A DNA stretch of 64,000 bases from Candidatus Bathyarchaeota archaeon (GTDB lineage Archaea; Thermoproteota; Bathyarchaeia; Bathyarchaeales; Bathycorpusculaceae): NCBI GenBank assembly GCA_963715865.1, contig OY970280.1, forward strand, positions 2,272,001 to 2,336,000, given 5' to 3'. Positions within the stretch are counted from its first letter, which is position 1. The number at the start of each line of letters is the position of its first letter. Below are positions 11,171-22,606 of the stretch, piece by piece. The translations under genes were made by a program, and so were the position numbers. Below the pieces are notes generated by a model. The model ran no database searches, was not told the origin of the DNA, and saw nothing but the letters and a program-made list of their open reading frames with translations.

Positions 11171-11273
11171 TCTGATTATGTTAAAATCCCCATGCTTTTT
11201 AGCTAAATATGTACTAAAAGCTGATAAACCCCTTTTTTCACTACATCCCCATTACAGTTAGAAGGGACTAAAA

Positions 11274-12755
11274 ATAGGCTGCGGCATCTTTGGTGCAATA
11301 AACTATGAAAATCAACCTGTCTTTCCGTATGTTTACTGGGGTCTCCGAGCCCAAAACCACCGAGGTCATCAATCACACGGCTTCCTCACATACAACAACA
11401 AACAATTTTTTGTATACAAAAACTTAGATTTAGTTCCAAAAATAAAAACTAACGCCATACAAGAATGGTTCGGGCGCCTTCCAGGATCTATGGGCATCGG
11501 CAACGTTCGATACACAACGTCAGGCAAATGTGATGATGCCTCACTTATCCAAGGCACTCAACCAGTCACCGCTTCAGCAAATGGCATAAAACTTGCACTC
11601 TCATTCAACGGCAACATAGTTAACACTTTGCCGCTGAAAAAAGAAATGACCGAAAACTTCTCAGACTTCCTCTACAATTGCGACTCCGACATAGTATGCC
11701 ACAAAATGCTCCTTGGACTCAAACAAGGCAAAGACTTAGCATCCGCGGTTCGCTCCGTCATGGAAAGCTTAGACGGCGCATTCTCCGTAACAGGCCTAAC
11801 CGGAGACGGAGACTTTTTCGCCTTCAAAGACCCGCATGGAATAAAACCGCTATGCGCTGGGCATGACCCTGCTGGGGCAACCTACGCTTTTTCCTCCGAA
11901 ACCGCAAGCTTAGACATGAACAGTTTAGTAAGAGACTTCGAACTAAAACCAGGCGAATTAGTCACAGTTTCACAAGACGGCTTCAAACGCACACAAATCA
12001 TTAAAAACCCTCACCACGCTTTTTGCGCTTTCGAATACGCTTATTTTGCTAGGCCCGATTCAAGGTTTGACGACAAATACGTTTACGAAATACGCGAAGA
12101 GTTCGGCAGAAATATCGTTAAAGAATATCCTGAAATAGTAAAGAATAGCGACATGATTCTCTCAGTGCCTGAAACCGGCGATGACCCAGCCATGGGGGTC
12201 CATGAAGCATCAGGCTTACGATGGGAACGGGCATCAAGGCGGCACCGTTATGTTACCGAGAGAGCCTTCATACTCCTGAACATGGAGCGCTTTTCCACGA
12301 TTGATAGGAAAATCAACATTTTAGGTCCGAAAGTTAATGGTAAACGAGTTATCGTAACCGAAGACAGCATAGTCAGAGGGGACACAACCAAGGTAATTAT
12401 AGATAAATTACGAAAATCAGGAGCCAAAAAAATTTATGTCTTCGTTACTTTTCCACGAATTATCGGACCTTGCTTTTATGGAATTGACATGTCAACTTAC
12501 GGGCAACTCGTCGGCTCAAAACACAGCGCCGAAGAAATCGCTAAAATCATAGGTGCAGACGGCGTATGCTACCAGTCCATTGAGGGATTAATACGTGCCA
12601 CTGGTCAAACACAAGACGGGCTCTGTTTAGCCTGCATTACAGGCAAGTATCCAACCCCATGTGCTCAAAAAATGGCTGATGCCATGAAACAGAGATTCCT
12701 TGATGGCTACGAAGAAAAAACGAGAATTTACGAGTCGGATGAAATTCAACCCTAA
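11274..12755 (+). CDS. purF: Amidophosphoribosyltransferase; the real N-terminus is 72 codons upstream of the track start
   Basis: In-frame upstream read IGCGIFG...QNHRGHQSHG includes the catalytic Cys (11280-11282). NVRYTTSG, CAFEYAYFARPDS, VPETG, EDSIVRGDT, CFYGIDM, CLAC. Confidence 0.93.
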   Translation: MGCGIFGAINYENQPVFPYVYWGLRAQNHRGHQSHGFLTYNNKQFFVYKNLDLVPKIKTNAIQEWFGRLPGSMGIGNVRYTTSGKCDDASLIQGTQPVTASANGIKLALSFNGNIVNTLPLKKEMTENFSDFLYNCDSDIVCHKMLLGLKQGKDLASAVRSVMESLDGAFSVTGLTGDGDFFAFKDPHGIKPLCAGHDPAGATYAFSSETASLDMNSLVRDFELKPGELVTVSQDGFKRTQIIKNPHHAFCAFEYAYFARPDSRFDDKYVYEIREEFGRNIVKEYPEIVKNSDMILSVPETGDDPAMGVHEASGLRWERASRRHRYVTERAFILLNMERFSTIDRKINILGPKVNGKRVIVTEDSIVRGDTTKVIIDKLRKSGAKKIYVFVTFPRIIGPCFYGIDMSTYGQLVGSKHSAEEIAKIIGADGVCYQSIEGLIRATGQTQDGLCLACITGKYPTPCAQKMADAMKQRFLDGYEEKTRIYESDEIQP

Positions 12756-12816: not shown

Positions 12817-14232
12817 ATGGAAAAAATAGGTATACTGGTCGTTTCCTACGGCGCAAGAGAAGTCGCCATGGTTGACGCTCTTCTACAAAGCAGAAACTAC
12901 CAAGTGGAACTCTACATCGCCGATAAACAACGGAACCCTTTCAACGCAGAAAAAGCCGCAAAACACGTTGTCATCCCAAACCTTGACGTTGAAGAAATCT
13001 GCAAATTCGCTGAATCAAGCAAGGATAAAATCGATTTCGTTCTGGTCGGTTCAGAAAAACCCATAATTGAAGGAGTCCGCGACCTCGTTGAGAAACGCAC
13101 AGGTATACCGGTTATTTGTCCAAAGCAACAATACGCCATAGAAGTCAGCAAAATCGAGCAGCGGCTGCTTTTCCAAGAAATTGCGCCAGAAGCTAATCCG
13201 CGCTTCAAGATTTTTAATCCAGCCGATTACAATGGCAAAACGGAAGTTAAAAGTGCCGTTTACCGCTGGCTAGATGAGCTAGATAACCAAGCTGTGGTTA
13301 AGCCTGATAAGCCTGCTTTGGGAAAAGGCGTCGGCGTCTGGGGAGACCACTTTGCCACCCGAGAGCAACTTTTTGAGCATTTCATGTCCAACTTCCAATA
13401 CGGCTCAGTAATAATAGAGGAAAAGATAGATGGGGAAGAATCCAGTTTCATGGCTTTCTGTGATGGCAAACACTTTATTCCCATGCCAGATACACGTGAT
13501 TACAAGCGTGCCTTTGATGATGATAAAGGTCCGAACACTGGTGGAATGGGCTCATACAAGGACGTTGGCGACACATTGCCATTCTTGACTGCGGCTGAAC
13601 GGAAACAGGAACTTGCGTTAGCCAATAAAATTTTCAAAGGTTGGAAGGCTAAGATTAAAGATGATTCGGCGCTCAGAGGCGTGCCCCTATATCTTGCCTT
13701 CATGCACACTGGCCACGGGATTAAGGTTCTAGAGAACAACAGTCGTCCCGGCGACCCAGAAATAATCAACCTCCTTCCACTAATCAAAGATGATTTTGTT
13801 GACATATGCTTCAAAATGATTGAGGGAAACCTAACGAGTGCCAAGTTGGAAAAGGCGGCGACCGTTTTAACATATAAGGTTCCACCAGACTACGGCGGCT
13901 ACGCAGACATGTTCCCCAACCAAATAGACAAATCAGCCGTTAACACTCAAGTTGACCTCTCAAAAGCTTACGCGCTAACCAAAAAGTATGGTAATAGAAT
14001 ACGCATTTACCCTGGCTCCATGGAAACAAGAAACGGCAAAAACTACGCTTTGAAATCTCGTGCAGTCGGGGTCTTAGGCATCGGCAATAGCATCGAAGAA
14101 GCACGACAAATCAGCCTCGAAGGCACCAAAGCAATCACAGGTGGAGCATTATGGAACCGAACCGACGTCGCCTCAAAGCAGCATATTGCAAAAAGCGTTA
14201 GTCACATGGAGAACTTGAGGCGCAAAGCGTGA
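12817..14232 (+). CDS. purD: Phosphoribosylamine-glycine ligase (GAR synthetase)
   Basis: GKGVGV, IEEKIDGEE, RDYKRAFDDDKGPNTGGMGSY, ENNSRPGDPE. Confidence 0.95.
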   Translation: MEKIGILVVSYGAREVAMVDALLQSRNYQVELYIADKQRNPFNAEKAAKHVVIPNLDVEEICKFAESSKDKIDFVLVGSEKPIIEGVRDLVEKRTGIPVICPKQQYAIEVSKIEQRLLFQEIAPEANPRFKIFNPADYNGKTEVKSAVYRWLDELDNQAVVKPDKPALGKGVGVWGDHFATREQLFEHFMSNFQYGSVIIEEKIDGEESSFMAFCDGKHFIPMPDTRDYKRAFDDDKGPNTGGMGSYKDVGDTLPFLTAAERKQELALANKIFKGWKAKIKDDSALRGVPLYLAFMHTGHGIKVLENNSRPGDPEIINLLPLIKDDFVDICFKMIEGNLTSAKLEKAATVLTYKVPPDYGGYADMFPNQIDKSAVNTQVDLSKAYALTKKYGNRIRIYPGSMETRNGKNYALKSRAVGVLGIGNSIEEARQISLEGTKAITGGALWNRTDVASKQHIAKSVSHMENLRRKA

Positions 14233-15311
14233 AGCACATCTTCATTTCTGACTGTGAAGGACCAATCTCCAAAAACGACAACGCCTTCGAGTTAACAGCC
14301 CATTTTATTCCAGAAGGAGACAAACTTTTTGCTAACATAAGCAAGTACGACGATGTACTGGCGGATGTTCTGCGAAAGCCCAGTTACTCTGCAGGCAGCA
14401 CGTTGAAACTGGTTTTGCCTTTCTTTAAAGCGTACGATGTTACGGATAAGCAGATGGAGAACTTTTCAGAGAAAAACATTTTTTTAATCGCTAACAGCCA
14501 AAATACGCTTCGCTACGTGCAAGCTATAGCCAACGCCTTCATCGTCAGCACCAGTTACGAGCATTACATAAGAGCGCTGTGCAAAGCATTAGCATTCCCA
14601 TACGAAAACACTTACTGTACCAAACTAAGCCTAGACAAATACGCCATCACCCAACAAGAAAAAAAGCGCTTAAAGGAGATAGCGAAAGAAATCTCCCAAA
14701 TGCAAATAATCACAATTCCCCCAAAAGCAAAAAAAATAGAAAACTTTTCGCGCAATGACCAGATGGCAATTCAGCGCTTGGATGAGATTTTCTGGAACGA
14801 AATCCTCAAGATGGGCTCAGGTAAACTGCTTACCGATGTCGTAACAGTTGGCGGAGAACAAAAAGCCGAAGCAATCCGTGACGCCGTAAAACGTTTAAGT
14901 TCAAAAATAGCGGATGTGATGTACGTGGGCGACAGCATAACCGACGTGGGCGCCTTCAAACTGGTACGAGCCAACGACGGCTTAACCGTATCCTTTAATG
15001 GCAATAGTTACGCAGTTAAAAATGCTGAAGTAGCGGTTCTATCCGAAAATAATGTTATCACTGCTGTGATTGCTGATTTGTTCTGCAGATTTGGGAAAGA
15101 AAAAACAATGCGTACGCTTCGGTCTTGGAGTTATGAAGCGCTCAAAAAACGAGGAGTGGACGATGCTTTGCTAAGACAGCTCTCAGACCTGTATCCTGAT
15201 GCCTTGCCTAAAGCTCAAATAGTAACAGCTGAGAATACGGAAATGCTAGTAAAAGAAAGCAGCGAATTTAGGAAGAAAGTGCGAGGAGTAGCCATCGGGA
15301 GACTCGGATAA
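14229..15311 (+). CDS. HAD-superfamily phosphohydrolase, COG4030/'EhaR'-like
   Basis: HAD motifs: ISDCEGP (I), IVSTS (II), KAEAI (III), YVGDSITD (IV). The N-terminal FISDCEGPISKNDNAFEL matches my recollection of the EhaR-like family. GTG start overlaps the purD stop. Confidence 0.75.
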   Translation: MKHIFISDCEGPISKNDNAFELTAHFIPEGDKLFANISKYDDVLADVLRKPSYSAGSTLKLVLPFFKAYDVTDKQMENFSEKNIFLIANSQNTLRYVQAIANAFIVSTSYEHYIRALCKALAFPYENTYCTKLSLDKYAITQQEKKRLKEIAKEISQMQIITIPPKAKKIENFSRNDQMAIQRLDEIFWNEILKMGSGKLLTDVVTVGGEQKAEAIRDAVKRLSSKIADVMYVGDSITDVGAFKLVRANDGLTVSFNGNSYAVKNAEVAVLSENNVITAVIADLFCRFGKEKTMRTLRSWSYEALKKRGVDDALLRQLSDLYPDALPKAQIVTAENTEMLVKESSEFRKKVRGVAIGRLG

Positions 15312-16223
15312 ATGCCAAATAAAGCATTAATAGAGGACACGTACGCCGAAGCCTTTACTGGAATCTTTTGCCGGGTAATTGTTACAGCCGACGACGAGGA
15401 AACCTTGCGTAGGGCTGCTGAAGATTCAACAGCAACGCCATCCGTTGTGATTGGCAGAGTGGAAGGCGGAGTCGAAAAATACCTAAGCCAAAAAGAAACT
15501 CCTGATAAGCGCAAAGGCGCGATACTGCAGTTCTGGGGAGAAATAAACCCCAAAAAAGCCTTCGCTGAATCACTAAAAAAGTTTGAAACCGAGCTTTCCT
15601 ACCGCATCCGTCAAGACATCCTAGTCAAGCCTTTCACCGCTGTCTACGACGCTTTGACAAGTGCTGAAGGCAAAATGGACATGATGGAGAGTGTTGGGCA
15701 CTGCGGTGACGGCTATGAATGGGTTGAAAAGCGCCACGGTAGAGAAGTTATCGTTGTCCCGCTGATGGTTCCTGACTTTATCATTGAGCGGTACTTAGGC
15801 TATGGCCGCGGTGTCATGGGCGGCAATTTTTGGGTGATGTGTAAAACAAAAGAAGCCTTAAGGCAAGCAGGCGAAAAAGCCTTAGCAGCAATCCATAATG
15901 TACGTGGTATAGTTGCGCCCTTTGATGTCTGCTCTGCCGGCTCCAAGCCGGAAACTCATTTTCCCAAGATTGGTCCAACAACTAACCACCTGTATTGTCC
16001 CTCTCTTAAGGAGCGGTTAGGCAAAGAATCCAAGGTTCCTGAAGGTGTAGGCTACATAGCAGAGATAGTGATAGATGGGGTTTCTTTAGATGCTGTTAAA
16101 AAAGCTACCAAAGCTGGAATCGAAGCAGTGTTAGGCATTGATGGCGTCGTGAAGGTTTCCGCTGGCAACTACGGCGGCAAACTAGGCGAACACAAAATAT
16201 TTTTGCGAGAGCTGTTTCCATGA
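15312..16223 (+). CDS. ftr: Formylmethanofuran:H4MPT formyltransferase (Ftr)-like protein
   Basis: [57 protein letters not shown]...LF all follow Ftr. It is divergent from canonical Ftr in the middle. Confidence 0.88.
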
Positions 16224-17131
16224 CCAAATTTGACGTTATCGGTTTTGGTGCACTCAACGTTGATATGCTTTTCAAAGTCGATAGACTTGCGGGGGCTGAA
16301 GAGGAAAGCTTCATCGAAGAATACACTGAAGCCTGCGGTGGCTCAGCCGCGAATACCGTGGTTGGGTTGGCAAGGCTCGGGTGCAAAACAGGGTTCATAG
16401 GAAAAGTAGCCAATGACCGAGAAGGCAAACTGCAAATTGACTGTTTTAGCAATGAAGGCGTAGACACCAGTGGCATCATTCAGACAAAACAGGGAAAAAG
16501 CGGTTCAGTGCTGGGTTTCGTGGACAAGAAAGGTGCAAGGGCATTATACATTAATTCAGGCGTGAACGATTCAATTGAGCCTCGGGAATTGAAATGGGAT
16601 TATGTTTCTCAAACAAAATTTCTCCATCTATCATCCTTCGTGGGAGAAAAATCATTCCGTACACAAAAAAAGCTCTTAGGTTCACTGCCTAGCGATATTA
16701 AAATCAGCTTTGACCCAGGTTCAGTTTATGCACAGAAAGGTTTTGTAGCTATAGAACCAATAATTAGAAGTTCTTATGTTTTGATGCCTAACGCTGTTGA
16801 GCTTGAGCTTTTAACTGGAGAAGCTGATTACTGCAAAGGTGCCGATTTAATGATTGAGGTGGGCGTTAAAATTGTTGCAGTTAAACTTGGCAGCAAAGGC
16901 TGTTACGTTACTGATGGTCGAGAAAGGCTTAGGATAGAACCTTTTAAAGTTAAGGTGGTCGATACGACTGGTGCTGGGGATGCTTTTTGCGCTGGCTTTC
17001 TCTACGGCTTAATCAACAACAAAAGCTTATCCGAGTGTGGGCGTTTAGGCAATTTTGTTGCTTCAAGATGCGTAATGGAGATGGGCGCACGTGCGGGCTT
17101 GCCCTATGCTAAAGATTTAGCATCGATTTAG
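16220..17131 (+). CDS. PfkB/ribokinase-family sugar or nucleoside kinase
   Basis: [38 protein letters not shown]; ATGA overlap with the ftr-like gene. Confidence 0.92.
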
Positions 17132-17197: not shown

Positions 17198-17599
17198 TTA
17201 GCCGAAAACCAACTTTAGAAAGTCTACTTTACCAAAATGTTTTTGGTCGTTAGAATAAACTTCAGTAACTCCTAATCGCATCATCAAAGCAAGGTTTACA
17301 CCGTCATTAAAGTCTAAATTCTCAGCAATCATGTTATTTGCTCCTACCAACAGGTCATCGCCGCTGAAACCGATGACTTTTAAAGCCTTGTAGGACATCA
17401 TCTTTTCAAGACTAGGCTTGATATCCCCTTGCTTACCCATGGCTTCTAGTACCCAAGCTACCTCGCACATTACCAATGTAGAAGTTATGGCCAGTTCACC
17501 GTTTTCTATGCGTTCAAGAATATTCTTAGCGGTCTTCCCGAAAAGGGGGTGAGCCGTGAGAGCATAGATAAAGACGTTGGTGTCCACGAACCGAGTCAC
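17198..17599 (-). CDS. vapC: PIN-domain toxin
   Basis: FVDTNVFIY, E at helix 2, DFNDG, YSND acidic tetrad. Confidence 0.9.
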   Translation of the reverse strand: MTRFVDTNVFIYALTAHPLFGKTAKNILERIENGELAITSTLVMCEVAWVLEAMGKQGDIKPSLEKMMSYKALKVIGFSGDDLLVGANNMIAENLDFNDGVNLALMMRLGVTEVYSNDQKHFGKVDFLKLVFG

Positions 17600-18018: not shown

Positions 18019-18849
18019 TTAGCACTTCTTAGTTAAATTGTCAATTATGCTTTGGAAGATTAGTTTTCCGTCGCCGTACTGCAGCATTTGCTGTTGCCGT
18101 GTCCAGTCGGGCTGTTGCCACCAGTACATAGCTCTTTCAGGATGAGGCATCAAACCAAAAATATTCCCTTCCTTATTGCATATGCCAGCAATGTCATAGA
18201 AGGAACCATTCGGATTAGTTGGGTACTTGCCGTCAGCAGATTCGCCGTTTTTATCGCAGTATCGGAAAACAATCATGTCATCATCGATTAGTTTTGCAAG
18301 CATTTCCTGTTCTTTCTCCTTAGGGAACAGTAACCTTCCTTCTCCATGAGCAATAGGCATCCTGACCATTTTCCCAGCTGGGATTTTGTTTGTGAAAGCG
18401 CATTTTCCCTTGTTTTCGTGCTTGAGATAAACCCACTGGCACTTGAAACCTTGCGGCTCATTCGTAGTTAATGTGGCTTCAGGATAAGCGCTTACTCCCT
18501 CTAGGCCCGGAAGTAAACCGTACTCAACCAATATTTGGAAGCCGTTGCATACACCAAGAATTGGTCTGCCTTCATCAACAAACGTTTCAATCTCTTTGCC
18601 TAGCTTGGCACTAAGCCACCGCGCAAAAATCACGCCTGAACGCACATAATCGCCGAACGAGAAGCCGCCTGGAAAAACCAGCACCTGATAATCCAGCAGA
18701 TTTCGGCGTTTTATTAACTCGTTAACATGCAAGGTTTCCGCTTGCACGCCTAACTCTTGAAATGCCCGCTGGGTTTCTGAGTCGCAGTTGGTTCCGCCGA
18801 CGCGCATGACGCAGACTTTGATTTCTTCTTGGTTCATTTTAGGGCTCAC
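18019..18849 (-). CDS. purQ: FGAM synthase glutaminase subunit
   Basis: GGTNCD, PGGFSFGDY, LGVCNGFQIL, AHGEG, GLMPHPER. Confidence 0.95.
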   Translation of the reverse strand: MSPKMNQEEIKVCVMRVGGTNCDSETQRAFQELGVQAETLHVNELIKRRNLLDYQVLVFPGGFSFGDYVRSGVIFARWLSAKLGKEIETFVDEGRPILGVCNGFQILVEYGLLPGLEGVSAYPEATLTTNEPQGFKCQWVYLKHENKGKCAFTNKIPAGKMVRMPIAHGEGRLLFPKEKEQEMLAKLIDDDMIVFRYCDKNGESADGKYPTNPNGSFYDIAGICNKEGNIFGLMPHPERAMYWWQQPDWTRQQQMLQYGDGKLIFQSIIDNLTKKC

Positions 18850-21220
18850 CGCTTAACGTTTTTTTCCAGCTACGCCGCAGCTCGGCAAGTGAAGCGTCAA
18901 CTACAATTTTCTGGTTTAGTCCGTGAATGAGGAGTTTCTCGTCTTTAGTTACTTTGCCAATTTTAGAGCAGGTTTTACCTTTCATTAATGCCTCAAATTC
19001 TTGCCTATCTTTTTCCGAGACTTCCAAAAGGAAGCGACTGTTTGATTCCGAAAACAACACAAAGTCACTCCGCTCTAAAGCTTTGCCAGGCGCTTTACCT
19101 AAATCCAGCTCTAAGCCGTAGCCGCCTGCAAACGCCATCTCCGCCGCCGCCACCGCCAACCCGCCTTCAGAGAGGTCATGGCATGATTTGATTAAGCCCA
19201 AATCGATGGCTTTAGTTACAGCTTTGAATGTGCGTTTGGCTTTTGCGCCTTTTACTTTGGGCACGCTTGCGCCTAAGTAGCCTTTGAGCTTGTAGTATTC
19301 TGAACCGCCAAGTTCATTGAACGTTTCCCCGACAACATAGAGCAGATTACCGGGCGCTTTCAAATCCATAGACGTGGTAAATTGAATGTTAGGAACAATG
19401 CCTATAGCAGTAATTAGCAGTGTCGGTGTGACTGGACCCAGCGGGGACTCGTTGTAGAGGCTATCTTTTCCCGAGATAAACGGCGTTCTAAACGCTTTTG
19501 CAAAGTCGTAGCAGGCTTCGCAGGCTCTTACCAGCGAACCCAAGCGCTCTGGCTTTTCAGGATTACCCCAAGTGAAGTTATCCAGAAGTGCAATTCTTCT
19601 TCCGCCGACGGCAATGTTGTTTCTCACTGCCTCGTCAATGGCTGAAGCAGCCATCCAGTAAGCATCAATCTTCCCGTAATTTGGGTTCATCCCGCATGAA
19701 ATAGCTAAGCCTTTCAATGATTCGTCGAGGGGTTTCAGAACAGCGGCGTCGTTCGGTCCAGCGTACTCTCCCTGCAAGGGTTTAAGCGTAGTGTTTCCTT
19801 TTACCTCATGGTCATAAGTGCGTATGACGCTTTCTTTGCTGGCAATGTTTGGCGCAGAAAGAAGCTGCAGCAGGGTTTCGGTTAGGTTTTCTGGTTCAGG
19901 AAATTCTGGTTCCGTGAAGCTTAAGGTTTCAATGGTTGCTGTTTTCATGCTTTTGCAAGGATTAAACAGAAATGCCATATCCATGTCGGCAACTTTCTCG
20001 CCATGAAAATTCAGGTGTAGGCGGCGCTCGGTTGTTAGTTTGCCTATTGCTGTAGCTTGGACGTCTTCTTTCTCAAAAATCGCCATAACTCGCTCCAAGT
20101 TTTCCGGTGGCACGGTTAGGAGCATTCTTTCCTGCGATTCTGAAATGTAAACTTCCCACGGAGCCAAACCCTGATACTTCAACGGTACCTTGCCAAGTTC
20201 AATGGTCGCTCCGCAGTCGAATTTTTCGGCTGTTTCGCCGACGGCTGAGGATAAGCCTCCTCCGCCAAGATCAGTAGTCGACGATGCCAATAGGAGGTCG
20301 CGGATTTCTATTAATGCCCGTTTGACTTTCTCTTCTTCAATTGGGTCGGCGATTTGTACGGCTGGTCTTGAGATTTCTTCTGATTTCTCAGTTAATTCGG
20401 CTGAGGCGAAGGTTACGCCATGGATGCCGTCGCGTCCTGTTTTTCCACCTGCCAGCACAATTGCATGTTCAGGTTTGGCGTTTTTCATGAACTTATTTAA
20501 TGGCAAAAGTCCTATGCATCCGCAGTATACGGTGACGTTGCCTGTGTAGCTGTCGTCAAAGTATATTGCTCCGTTTACAGTTGGGATGCCCATGTTATTT
20601 CCATAAGCGCTAATGCCAGCGGTAACGCCCATGTACACGTACTTTGGATGTTTTACGCCTGCAGGAAGCTTGTTGTAATCGTAATCTAGTGGTCCGAAGC
20701 CTAAAACGTCTGTGCACGCGATTGGGTCTGCCCAGACACCGAGGATGTCTCGAATTACGCCGCCGACACCAGTAGCTGCGCCGCCGAAAGGTTCAACTGC
20801 TGACGGGTGGTTGTGGGTTTCAACTTTGGCGGCTATTCCATAGCCCTTGTCAAAACGGACGATGCCAGCGTTATCTTCGAAGACGCTGAAGCACCATGGT
20901 GGGTTGATTTCTTTTGTGGCTTTTGCAATGTAAGTTTTGAAGAGGCTGTCGATTTCTTTGCCGTCCAAGCGGATTTTTCCTTTGAAGGTTTTGTGGTAGC
21001 AGTGTTCTGACCATGTTTGGCTGATGGTTTGCAGCTCCACATCCGTTGGGTTTCTGTCTTCCTTCTTGAAGTAGGCTTGGATACTCTTCATTTCTTGTAG
21101 GCTTGAGCCTAATGCTAGCTCGTTGCTTATTTCGGCGAGTTGTTGGTCGGTGGCTTTGGCTAAGGCTACCTCGTAGAGCGCATAACTGGTTTTACGGTGG
21201 ATGTAGAGGTTATCGTTCAT
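18839..21220 (-). CDS. purL: FGAM synthase synthetase subunit
   Basis: WSEHCYH, KVETHNHPS, GVGGVIRD, DLGGGG, SESQERM, SGKDSLYN, HDLSEGG. Confidence 0.96.
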   Translation of the reverse strand: MNDNLYIHRKTSYALYEVALAKATDQQLAEISNELALGSSLQEMKSIQAYFKKEDRNPTDVELQTISQTWSEHCYHKTFKGKIRLDGKEIDSLFKTYIAKATKEINPPWCFSVFEDNAGIVRFDKGYGIAAKVETHNHPSAVEPFGGAATGVGGVIRDILGVWADPIACTDVLGFGPLDYDYNKLPAGVKHPKYVYMGVTAGISAYGNNMGIPTVNGAIYFDDSYTGNVTVYCGCIGLLPLNKFMKNAKPEHAIVLAGGKTGRDGIHGVTFASAELTEKSEEISRPAVQIADPIEEEKVKRALIEIRDLLLASSTTDLGGGGLSSAVGETAEKFDCGATIELGKVPLKYQGLAPWEVYISESQERMLLTVPPENLERVMAIFEKEDVQATAIGKLTTERRLHLNFHGEKVADMDMAFLFNPCKSMKTATIETLSFTEPEFPEPENLTETLLQLLSAPNIASKESVIRTYDHEVKGNTTLKPLQGEYAGPNDAAVLKPLDESLKGLAISCGMNPNYGKIDAYWMAASAIDEAVRNNIAVGGRRIALLDNFTWGNPEKPERLGSLVRACEACYDFAKAFRTPFISGKDSLYNESPLGPVTPTLLITAIGIVPNIQFTTSMDLKAPGNLLYVVGETFNELGGSEYYKLKGYLGASVPKVKGAKAKRTFKAVTKAIDLGLIKSCHDLSEGGLAVAAAEMAFAGGYGLELDLGKAPGKALERSDFVLFSESNSRFLLEVSEKDRQEFEALMKGKTCSKIGKVTKDEKLLIHGLNQKIVVDASLAELRRSWKKTLSGEP

Positions 21221-21468
21221 TTCTGCTCCTCAACGGTTATTGTGTAGTTGTCTTTGGTTGGGTTTGCCAAAAGGCGTTTACTCATTTCTTCCGCCTTTGC
21301 CTTGGCTTCTTTAATTGTTGGTGCATCAAGAATGACAGTGTAAACTTTGCTCACGTCTACTGCTTCTACTTTGTAGCCGAGTTCTTTTAATAAACGGGCT
21401 GTTGTTTCCCCTTCAGGATTGCTGTGACCTGGTTTGAGGCTGACCTCTATTTTAGCGCGGTATTTCAT
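21217..21468 (-). CDS. purS: FGAM synthase PurS subunit
   Basis: LKPGHSNPEG...LLANP; overlaps the purL start. Confidence 0.92.
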   Translation of the reverse strand: MKYRAKIEVSLKPGHSNPEGETTARLLKELGYKVEAVDVSKVYTVILDAPTIKEAKAKAEEMSKRLLANPTKDNYTITVEEQK

Positions 21469-21526: not shown

Positions 21527-22606
21527 TTACGTCAATATCATCTTTTTGTTTTGGTAGTGTATTTCTACAGTTTGTTTTTCTGTTACTTTGCCGATTATTT
21601 CAGGTTTTGAGCTGTCTTGCTCTAGCGTGTTCATGGCTTTATCAATTTCTGTTTTGTCTACGATTATGCCGAAGCCCCAGCCCATGTTGAAGGTTTTGAA
21701 CATTTCCTCGTCTGTAATAGTATAGCCTAATTCAGCCGCCGTTTTTTGAATCAATCCGAAAATGGGTTGGGGTTTAAAGTTGGTAAATTCAAAGCCTATG
21801 CCTGGCGAGAAACTGACAAGGTTGTTGAATTTCATGTACGCGTCGCCCGTTATGTGTACTGCTGCTTTGACTTTTACTTCGCCCGCTAGTTTGAGTAGTG
21901 GCTTAACGTAAATTTTTGTTGGTTCAAGGGCTTCAAGGGCTATTTCCCTGTCCAAGCCTGCTGGGGTGTCGTTTGGCTGGTATTTTCCGCCCCATTGCTT
22001 AAAGAGGATTTTTCTTGCCATTGTTATGCCATTGCTGTGCAATCCGTTGCTGGCTAAGCCTATTATTGGGTCGCCAGGTTTGATGTTTTCTCCGGTGATG
22101 ATTTCTTGCCTTTCAACTTGACCTACTGAAGCGACCACCATGTCGAAGCCTGCGTTTTCTGTTAAGCCTCTTATTATTTCAGCTACGTCGCCTGTTTCTC
22201 CGCCTGTAACTGGGCATTCTGCTTCAGCGGCGCCTTGGATGATTCCTTTTAGCCATGCTTTTACAAGCTGGGGTTCGCTTGCTTGAGTATGAATGTTATC
22301 CACTATGGCGAGCGGTTTAGCTCCTGAACGGATTACGTCGTTGACTGCCATGGCTACTGCGTCTATGCCTATGGTATCATATTTCTGTGCTAATTGTGCT
22401 ATGAGGACTTTGGTGCCTACGCCTTCGATGACAAGGTCCAGAAAAGTGTTTTCTCCGATTGGAAAAATGTTACCATATGGCAGATGCATTACGCCGCCAT
22501 AGCGGCTGTGCTTGTAGGTTTCCTGCAGGCTTTTTAGGGCTTTTTTTGATTCTGCGCGTTGTTTGCGGTTTACGCCTGCATCGCTGTAAGTGTAATTTTT
22601 AGGCAA
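21527..22606 (-). CDS. purM: AIR synthetase
   Basis: YSDAGV, EGVGTK, VAMAVND, GGETG, GLHSNG, HITG, TFNMGWG. Confidence 0.93.
   Translation of the reverse strand: MPKNYTYSDAGVNRKQRAESKKALKSLQETYKHSRYGGVMHLPYGNIFPIGENTFLDLVIEGVGTKVLIAQLAQKYDTIGIDAVAMAVNDVIRSGAKPLAIVDNIHTQASEPQLVKAWLKGIIQGAAEAECPVTGGETGDVAEIIRGLTENAGFDMVVASVGQVERQEIITGENIKPGDPIIGLASNGLHSNGITMARKILFKQWGGKYQPNDTPAGLDREIALEALEPTKIYVKPLLKLAGEVKVKAAVHITGDAYMKFNNLVSFSPGIGFEFTNFKPQPIFGLIQKTAAELGYTITDEEMFKTFNMGWGFGIIVDKTEIDKAMNTLEQDSSKPEIIGKVTEKQTVEIHYQNKKMILT

Follow-up and report, generated by a model that had tools for sequence, protein, structure and literature searches.

The third step of purine biosynthesis, formylation of glycinamide ribonucleotide (GAR) to formylglycinamide ribonucleotide (FGAR), has two known enzymes, the GAR formyltransferases PurN (EC 2.1.2.2) and PurT (EC 6.3.1.21). 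Since 2011 its gene has been reported missing (PMC3261824) in organisms whose purine pathway is complete apart from this step: two members of the Archaeoglobi, M. kandleri (Methanopyrus), and four Methanobacteriales, for which the paper prints "Methanomicrobiales". A second, uncharacterised clade of the formyltransferase Ftr, including Ftr2 of M. marburgensis, has been described in that species, Archaeoglobales, M. kandleri and ANME-1, and PurN and PurT are lacking in ANME-1, Archaeoglobales and Methanobacteriales (PMC9012536, whose names Ftr1 and Ftr2 we follow). The last three genes of the Methanothermobacter ehaA-T operon, ehaR, ehaS and ehaT, are known from work on energy-converting hydrogenase (PMC3087415, citing Tersteegen and Hedderich 1999), EhaS being annotated as a formyltransferase (Ftr) and EhaT as a ribokinase (Kaster et al. 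2011, PMC3087415). Here we describe a 64-kb stretch ("the window") of contig C1 of a Candidatus Bathyarchaeota archaeon (genome G000), in which probable counterparts of ehaR, ehaS and ehaT stand directly behind purD. From their position in the pathway, their complementarity with PurN and PurT, the exchange of one member and several gene fusions, we lean towards the view that the trio and purD are a portable module for the conversion of GAR to FGAR in archaea without PurN or PurT.

The GAR formylation gap and the Ftr2 clade are each already in print. We found no paper that joins the two, although the genes behind these statements may be named in supplementary files of PMC9012536 and PMC3261824. 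Literature searches likewise returned no assigned function for EhaR, AF1437 or COG4030, no link of Ftr to GAR in work on glycinamide ribonucleotide with methanopterin, and, among the papers listed, nothing relevant since 2012 on GAR enzymes in methanogen genera. The source genome is a single contig of 2.35 Mb, 97.86% complete, and its closest public relatives are Candidatus Bathyarchaeia, among them a metagenome-assembled genome (MAG) from SPRUCE peat (L009) that is 96% identical.

Probable counterparts of ehaR, ehaS and ehaT in a purine operon

Three + strand open reading frames (ORFs) of 360, 303 and 303 amino acids occupy positions 14229-17131 of the window. The first encodes a HAD-type phosphoryl-transfer enzyme of the EhaR/AF1437 family (14229-15311, +; Hydrolase_3 28.1 bits, cut-off 20.9), the second Ftr2, a diverged Ftr paralogue of EhaS type (15312-16223, +; FTR 150.9 and FTR_C 184.2 bits), and the third a kinase of the PfkB/ribokinase family, of EhaT type (16220-17131, +; PF00294 181.8 bits; GAGD motif). 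Window proteins were searched with Pfam and NCBIfam models, and the cut-offs quoted are those of the models. As the original prediction stated, purD lies directly upstream (12817-14232), overlapping the HAD gene by 4 nucleotides (GTGA); the HAD and Ftr2 genes abut (TAA-ATG), and Ftr2 and PfkB meet at ATGA. Through these overlapping or abutting stop and start codons the trio and purD are translationally coupled. The gene order of the operon is purF-purD-HAD-Ftr2-PfkB, and it is faced by the convergent genes purQ-purL-purS-purM on the opposite strand. Since purine steps 1, 2, 4 and 5 are encoded in the cluster, the trio occupies the place of step 3.

The families and their order are those of the distal eha genes, as the original prediction stated, and for EhaS and EhaT this agrees with the family descriptions in PMC3087415. 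That EhaR is a HAD-type protein rests on Joint Genome Institute (JGI) names and on the name of an Atlas cluster, which in "Methanobacteriota" was automatically called EhaR. Sequence supports the orthology of the window protein to EhaR: P0001, as it is called here, aligns from end to end with a Methanobrevibacter sp. protein at 43% identity (P0166; residues 4-360 against 5-349, E 2.2e-73), with the motifs in common, and relatives of P0166 are named EhaR by JGI. The likeness of the window Ftr2 and kinase to EhaS and EhaT is taken from published family descriptions (PMC3087415, PMC9012536). We take the window trio to be the counterpart of ehaR, ehaS and ehaT, with products that are not hydrogenase parts.

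Unlike the eha operon, the window trio has no hydrogenase; it follows purF-purD and faces purQLSM. The absence of Eha claimed by the original prediction was followed genome-wide with two marker families, not with every Eha subunit: EhaA (PF17367) gave no match, and the sole Complex1_49kDa-type large subunit is encoded some 1.37 Mb away from the window, at C1:906943. The JGI name "energy-converting hydrogenase A subunit R" is borne by many close homologues of the window HAD protein, and the label sits on dozens of Bathyarchaeia proteins encoded in purine operons, which sustains the suspicion that it was transferred from gene neighborhood. A genuine role of the three proteins as accessory parts of an energy-converting hydrogenase is scarcely credible to us. 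In favor of that role, the Methanothermobacter genes are cotranscribed with ehaA-R, and because of this Kaster et al. judged enzyme functions of EhaS and EhaT "very unlikely" (PMC3087415). We reject it nonetheless, given the missing EhaA, the distant Complex1_49kDa-type gene, the position of the HAD gene beside purD in almost every Bathyarchaeia locus compared and in most Asgard loci, and the membership of all three proteins in soluble enzyme families with intact catalytic motifs.

Conservation of the module and the step-3 gap in Bathyarchaeia

The PurN model has no match in the source genome. The PurT model reaches at best 47.7 bits there against a cut-off of 502, and its matches are MfnD-like, CarB-type and MptN-like ATP-grasp proteins. 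For the second formylation the genome carries a tandem PurP pair (C1:1436593-1438058). A second PurP as the main missing enzyme was considered and rejected, since tandem pairs also occur where a PurT-like gene exists (family f10; G005, G295) and several HAD-positive genomes that are 95-100% complete show one weak PurP-like match only. Several related genomes encode a single long PurP-like protein of 455-470 residues, with 70-91 bits on PF06849.

Gene order was compared in Bathyarchaeia and Asgard loci; for Bathyarchaeia the set was the best 80 of 565 genome-collection stretches encoding a relative of the HAD protein, and the profile for the locus scan was built from an alignment of 12 diverse members. 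All 80 HAD genes belong to a purine context; purD immediately precedes 79 of them, the remaining locus beginning at the HAD gene, and Ftr2 follows directly in 79, the remaining locus stopping after it. A PfkB gene occurs within two genes in 74 loci; of the six others, three run into a contig end, two have a split Ftr2 gene and one has an extra 325-codon ORF. The full order purF-purD-HAD-Ftr2-PfkB was found in 69 loci, and purQ and purL are present in 62. The HAD proteins of these loci share as little as 57% identity with that of the window, which means that gene order was preserved over considerable divergence. The predicted co-occurrence of this COG4030-type gene with Ftr2 and PfkB genes is therefore general among these loci, and the combination of HAD, purD, Ftr2-type and PfkB genes returns in Asgard archaea, as a portable module would. 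The split Ftr2 genes (two ORFs; a frameshift or assembly error) belong to two related loci, and the extra ORF lies between the HAD and Ftr2 genes of a third (sites L019:11254-11915, L085:11082-11986 and L088:11087-12064).

Within a sample of 251 Thermoproteota genomes that are at least 80% complete, the HAD gene was found in 33 of 37 Bathyarchaeia and in none of the 214 others. A class sample of 201 Bathyarchaeia genomes, also at least 80% complete, was then scored for PurD (E <= 1e-30), PurN-model (E <= 1e-8) and PurT-model (E <= 1e-30) matches. HAD is present in 82 and PurD in 172; 89 genomes have a PurN-model match, 29 of them over the cut-off, and 12 a PurT-model match (175-303 bits), none over it. 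The 172 PurD-positive genomes divide into 72 with HAD and no PurN or PurT match, 90 with a match and no HAD, seven with both and three with neither; three HAD-positive genomes (G126, G289 and G303) have no PurD match. At family level, about a dozen families are of the HAD type, about a dozen of the PurN/PurT type, and two (f7 and f53) are mixed. The largest HAD-less family, f50, carries a PurN-like protein of about 275 residues in 47 of 50 genomes, with best matches mostly of 80-106 bits, under the cut-off. It is 49-52% identical to the PurN-like proteins encoded directly after purD in G285 and G368. The PurT-like proteins of f7, f10 and f46 align across the whole model.

Exchange and fusion of the formyltransferase

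Three HAD-less genomes show what else may follow purD: a PurN-like gene (G285), a PurN-like gene and then PurN (G368), or a PurT-like gene (G325). PurN and PurT have both the pathway place and the slot after purD in common with Ftr2, and in Bathyarchaeia their distribution is complementary to that of HAD. They differ from the Ftr2 system in being unrelated in sequence, in being one protein instead of three, and in their donor, which for Ftr2 would probably be a methanogen-type one-carbon (C1) carrier.

The exchange is seen within HAD-positive genomes as well. One f8 genome (G274) and part of f53 (G269, G341) read purF-purD*-PurN-like-HAD-PfkB, where purD* denotes a diverged purD subtype, while other f53 genomes (G333, G323) read purF-purD*-HAD-Ftr2-PfkB. 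Two further f8 genomes (G071, G039) keep purF-purD*-PurN-like and have HAD and PfkB elsewhere in the genome. Five of the seven genomes that have both HAD and a PurN or PurT match carry the PurN-like gene directly after purD*. These five have one Ftr match each (169-180 bits), the two that were fetched belonging to the Ftr1 clade, and formate-tetrahydrofolate ligase was not found in any of them.

Fusions link the same HAD protein to other formyltransferases. P0209 (599 residues) joins a PurN-like domain to HAD, and this N-terminal domain is 43-55% identical to the HAD-linked PurN-like proteins. The latter form a subfamily of their own; they score 51-75 bits with the PurN model and retain Asn-x-His and Asp as other PurN-family proteins do. 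They have SGRDAA where canonical PurN has SGRGTN, a loop that in E. coli PurN we take to bind the GAR phosphate; the altered loop would suit an acceptor that has no phosphate, or one bound by the partner protein. At the N-terminus of two longer proteins, P0198 (899 residues) and P0217 (961 residues), a PurT-like ATP-grasp domain is fused to HAD; the only matches of this domain are to PurT, and they are weak (NF006766 33 bits; 2CZG E 0.013, several colinear motifs).

The Bathyarchaeia PurN-like proteins fall into three subfamilies: canonical PurN, an "HPADLS" type of about 275 residues, and the HAD-linked "HPAPPGGPKG" type with its altered N-terminal loop. Some genomes have the "HPADLS" type after purD, and the largest HAD-less family has its best PurN-model match in this type. 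Example genes of the subfamilies lie at L132:6359-7204, L137:7341-8333, L148:6928-7767 and L172:6002-6817. The metagenome scan yielded one fetched gene that joins a very diverged PurT-like ATP-grasp domain to an EhaR-type HAD (L089:10001-12895, 964 codons). Its neighbors are genes for a restriction-modification methylase, a UvrD-type helicase, a SIR2-periplasmic-binding-protein fusion and AcnX.

Hence the formyltransferase is the swappable member of the unit and HAD the constant one. Because HAD is linked to three unrelated kinds of formyltransferase, its function is placed on the acceptor side of formylation and not on the donor side. The same exchange, with HAD kept, locates the unexplained chemistry in HAD and the kinase.

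PurD* as a travelling partner

PurD encoded beside HAD in Bathyarchaeia scores 236-272 bits on TIGR00877, against 279-513 bits in HAD-less genomes, f48 (244-253 bits) excepted. Seven PurD* proteins are 52-65% identical to one another and 23-36% identical to other PurD, and among the over-cut-off PurD matches listed only G272 and G309 are HAD-positive. The mixed family f7 shows the same split: two HAD-positive genomes have a PurD in the PurD* range (confirmed as PurD* for G031), and nine others have canonical PurD with a PurT-like gene or PurN. purD is thus part of the travelling unit. Two cases depart from this: family f48 combines PurD* with a PurN-like gene and lacks HAD, and G272 has another PurD type beside HAD-Ftr2-PfkB, 57-59% identical to two Asgard PurD.

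This co-travel, also within f7, could be read differently. Ftr2 or the PurN-like protein would formylate another acceptor, such as free glycine, PurD* would ligate N-formylglycine to phosphoribosylamine to give FGAR directly, and HAD and the kinase would serve a side reaction. Such an ATP-dependent ligation should pull a formyl transfer that is near equilibrium. We regard this route as improbable. G272 and three Asgard genomes have a different PurD type beside HAD-Ftr2-PfkB, small Asgard genomes have a canonical PurD, f48 has PurD* without HAD, and the two most constant partners, HAD and the kinase, would be left without a role.

Asgard archaea and the limits of the proposed function

The HAD gene was found in 37 of 201 Asgard genomes sampled, one instance being on a probably mis-binned contig. 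That contig (L050, G001:C231; 3.6 kb, from a MAG titled Thorarchaeota) reads HAD-Ftr2-PfkB-purQ in the Bathyarchaeia order, with 64-80% identity to the window. Three Asgard loci read purD-HAD-Ftr2-PfkB. Small Asgard genomes (G418, G430) have the order purQ-purL-purF-purD-HAD-PfkB-purE-purB-purM-purP-guaA, with canonical PurD (452 bits) and no formyltransferase beside the HAD-PfkB pair; an Ftr2-type gene, 51-55% identical to the window Ftr2, lies elsewhere in the genome. No PurN match was found in the five small genomes tested, and no PurN or PurT match in any of the ten genomes of these two groups, the small ones and those with purD-HAD-Ftr2-PfkB.

A third Asgard group comprises 26 genomes, of which 15 loci were annotated (L156-L170). 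In 12 of these 15, which come from large genomes, purD is followed by a 160-residue ORF (with HEAT repeats in the one scanned, L160) and then by HAD. The HAD proteins of this group are 27-30% identical to that of the window and have all the catalytic motifs. An Ftr2-type gene was present in all five genomes tested, on the Ftr2 side of the tree split.

Several points weigh against the assignment of the trio and purD to GAR formylation, the first of them from this third group. Canonical PurN (over 150 bits) is present in 20 of its 26 genomes, that is, in 20 of the 37 HAD-positive Asgard genomes, so that HAD and Ftr2 co-occur but are not confined to genomes with a step-3 gap. Conversely, 80 of 164 HAD-less Asgard genomes, counted irrespective of PurD, have no PurN and no PurT match. 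Within Bathyarchaeia, the complementarity leans on relaxed thresholds, and a relaxed PurN- or PurT-model match may not be a GAR enzyme; the genomes are, moreover, related by descent, so that the counts stand for few evolutionary switches. No pur gene and no PfkB gene was found within 10 kb of the fusion gene of L089. Canonical PurN and PurT need neither a phosphatase nor a kinase, which leaves two thirds of the module without a demonstrated role. From the literature, Kaster et al. regard EhaS and EhaT as hydrogenase subunits (PMC3087415), and formyl-H4MPT (H4MPT, tetrahydromethanopterin) is not believed to be a formyl donor by Brown et al. (PMC3261824). Asgard genomes that have both HAD and PurN may simply be redundant, like E. 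coli with its purN and purT, or HAD could serve PurD or GAR whatever the formyltransferase.

The Asgard contexts leave room for a different account, in which HAD, the kinase and purD form a unit that handles the phosphate of labile ribosyl intermediates (phosphoribosylamine, GAR or their breakdown products) or controls damage to them. Ftr2 would then only manage C1 units, for instance by releasing formate for formate-dependent ligases, and the formylation of GAR would fall to a different enzyme, for example a paralogue of PurP or an ATP-grasp ligase not yet recognised. The location of HAD with purD even in the 20 PurN-carrying Asgard genomes would follow naturally, as would the HAD-PfkB pair that stands in a pur operon without an adjoining formyltransferase. 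The tandem PurP pair of the source genome also fits this account, as do the unexplained purP duplications reported by Brown et al. (PMC3261824). The tandem PurP genes found where a PurT-like gene exists, and the nearly complete HAD-positive genomes with a single weak PurP-like match, count against it. A PurN-family enzyme takes the Ftr2 slot and is fused to HAD in P0209, which is hard to square with an Ftr2 that does not formylate the same intermediate. We consider this account rather unlikely, and the assignment of the module to step 3 remains the one that we favor.

The HAD-type protein

The HAD protein passes generic HAD models only, Hydrolase_3 being over its cut-off and HAD-IB under it. 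Its family is nevertheless well defined: among 1.84 billion representatives searched, 620 belong to it at E <= 0.001, and 196 of these reach E <= 1e-30. In all 12 diverse members compared, D8, S107/T108, K212, D235 and D239 are invariant, as is the C-terminal tail, and the motifs read D-x-E-G-P (I), STSY (II), Lys (III) and GDSITD (IV). The family carries an invariant Glu where the D-x-D of motif I would have its second Asp, the residue for general acid/base catalysis. Motifs are present in most of 150 family representatives among the matches listed, and the catalytic residues are retained in Asgard and in PurN-like-linked members.

The only solved relative is AF1437 of Archaeoglobus fulgidus (PDB 1Y8A, "hypothetical protein"), matched at E 9.8e-30 with the single sequence and at 3.3e-59 with the profile; the two proteins have the D-x-E-G-P motif in common. 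The next PDB matches of the profile are MtnX and phosphoserine phosphatases, at E of about 5e-4 to 1e-3. Our searches of the literature found no paper on AF1437 or 1Y8A. Other Atlas clusters of the family come from Thermoplasmatota and, among bacteria, from Thermodesulfobacteriota and Spirochaetota. A long form, P0425 (682 amino acids), was considered as a two-domain variant and set aside: its second domain is not recognisable, and it is probably a gene-calling artefact.

Ftr2 and the PfkB kinase

Ftr2 exceeds the Pfam cut-offs for FTR and FTR_C and matches the NCBIfam subfamily NF002554 at 341.2 bits (cut-off 297), and it fails the equivalog TIGR03119 (236.2 bits against a cut-off of 292.6). 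The second Ftr of the genome, at C1:1759744, is a canonical Ftr1. Against A. fulgidus Ftr (1M5H), Ftr1 scores 312.9 bits and Ftr2 179.8 bits, and the two are 37% identical to each other. A tree of 115 Ftr sequences from the loci examined separates seven Ftr1 from 108 Ftr2 with a split support of 1.0. Like characterised Ftr (EC 2.3.1.101; PDB 1FTR/2FHJ/2FHK, 1M5H and 1M5S), Ftr2 has the full-length two-lobe FTR and FTR_C architecture and keeps the C-terminal GNYGGKLG; unlike it, it belongs to a separate clade, falls under the equivalog cut-off, and would act on GAR and not on H4MPT.

The kinase has a PfkB domain with the GAGD anion-hole and catalytic Asp motif and an N-terminal N-x-D. Its best NCBIfam models are ribokinase (167.5 bits, cut-off 299.65) and ribose-1-phosphate kinases (147 and 141 bits), and it falls under every equivalog cut-off of kinases with a known substrate. 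It would differ from these PfkB enzymes in its substrate, predicted to be a C1-substituted ribofuranoside of the purine pathway.

Proposed chemistry and C1 supply

In the step-3 module that we propose, Ftr2 would transfer a formyl group to the amino group of the PurD product, with formylmethanofuran or N5-formyl-H4MPT as the most likely donor. The source genome encodes FwdA (813 bits), Ftr1, MfnA and an MfnF-type protein, and the organism should accordingly be able to make both formylmethanofuran and formyl-H4MPT. A methanofuran cluster at C1:955286-959038 (L003) holds MfnA, an MfnD-like ATP-grasp protein and the MfnF-type/TIGR03123 gene, in a host that is a non-methanogen. The HAD enzyme and the PfkB kinase would be obligatory partners on the same ribosyl intermediate, most likely handling its 5'-phosphate, which HAD would remove or hold and the kinase restore with ATP.

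The C1 connection also admits the idea that the trio serves to make or recycle a ribosylated cofactor, a C1 carrier or another, as a step of methanopterin or methanofuran synthesis, and that its linkage to pur genes reflects shared phosphoribosyl pyrophosphate chemistry. Proteins of the Ftr family bind methanofuran and H4MPT. H4MPT synthesis runs through ribosyl-phosphate intermediates and includes kinase and phosphatase steps that are not known to have assigned genes. The linkage is specific to purD and to the slot that PurN- and PurT-type genes take in sister genomes, and the methanofuran genes lie elsewhere; we hold such a role to be very improbable.

Returning to GAR formylation, a more specific and distinctly tentative version is an ATP-driven detour of three enzymes at the nucleoside level. 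HAD would strip the 5'-phosphate from GAR or keep it as a phospho-enzyme, the recruited formyltransferase (Ftr2, PurN-like or PurT-like) would formylate glycinamide riboside, and the PfkB kinase would put the phosphate back. As PurL of the window is canonical (690.6 bits), the end product must be FGAR with its phosphate. If such a detour exists, low-energy methanogen C1 carriers could feed purine synthesis, and the placement of the genes in eha operons of Methanobacteriales would couple the withdrawal of formylmethanofuran to the reduced-ferredoxin supply of Eha. Eha is reportedly anaplerotic, supplying reduced ferredoxin, a finding said to go back to Lie et al. in 2012.

Should the module act in step 3, the textbook pathway would gain a third, multi-protein solution fed by C1 carriers of methanogen type, the name "EhaR" would be wrong for thousands of annotated genes of non-methanogens, and the link between Eha and biosynthesis in methanogens would gain a concrete explanation. 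A direct test of the claim would need three soluble proteins, one of which has a relative of known crystal structure, 1Y8A.

Other features of the locus

The operon of the trio begins with purF, encoding amidophosphoribosyltransferase (11274-12755, +; TIGR01134 283.1 bits for the ATG-started part). The codon of its catalytic N-terminal Cys lies at 11280, 70 codons upstream of the first ATG. Initiation of purF is probably non-canonical, because after the in-frame TAG at 11259 the sole start candidate is an ATA at 11274. purD, of the PurD* subtype (12817-14232, +), scores 237.9 bits on TIGR00877, under the cut-off of 288. On the - strand, the convergent operon comprises purM (21527-22606; TIGR00878 267.5 bits, cut-off 236.35), purS (21217-21468; TIGR00302 69.5 bits, cut-off 39), purL (18839-21220; TIGR01736, cut-off 525.75) and purQ (18019-18849; NF002252 323.6 bits, cut-off 298). 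A scan of the locus for bacterial-type promoter and terminator sites gave only chance-level matches. Between the two convergent pur operons lies a PIN-domain gene (17198-17599, -), which among the 80 Bathyarchaeia loci recurs only in the two closest (L009 and L010).

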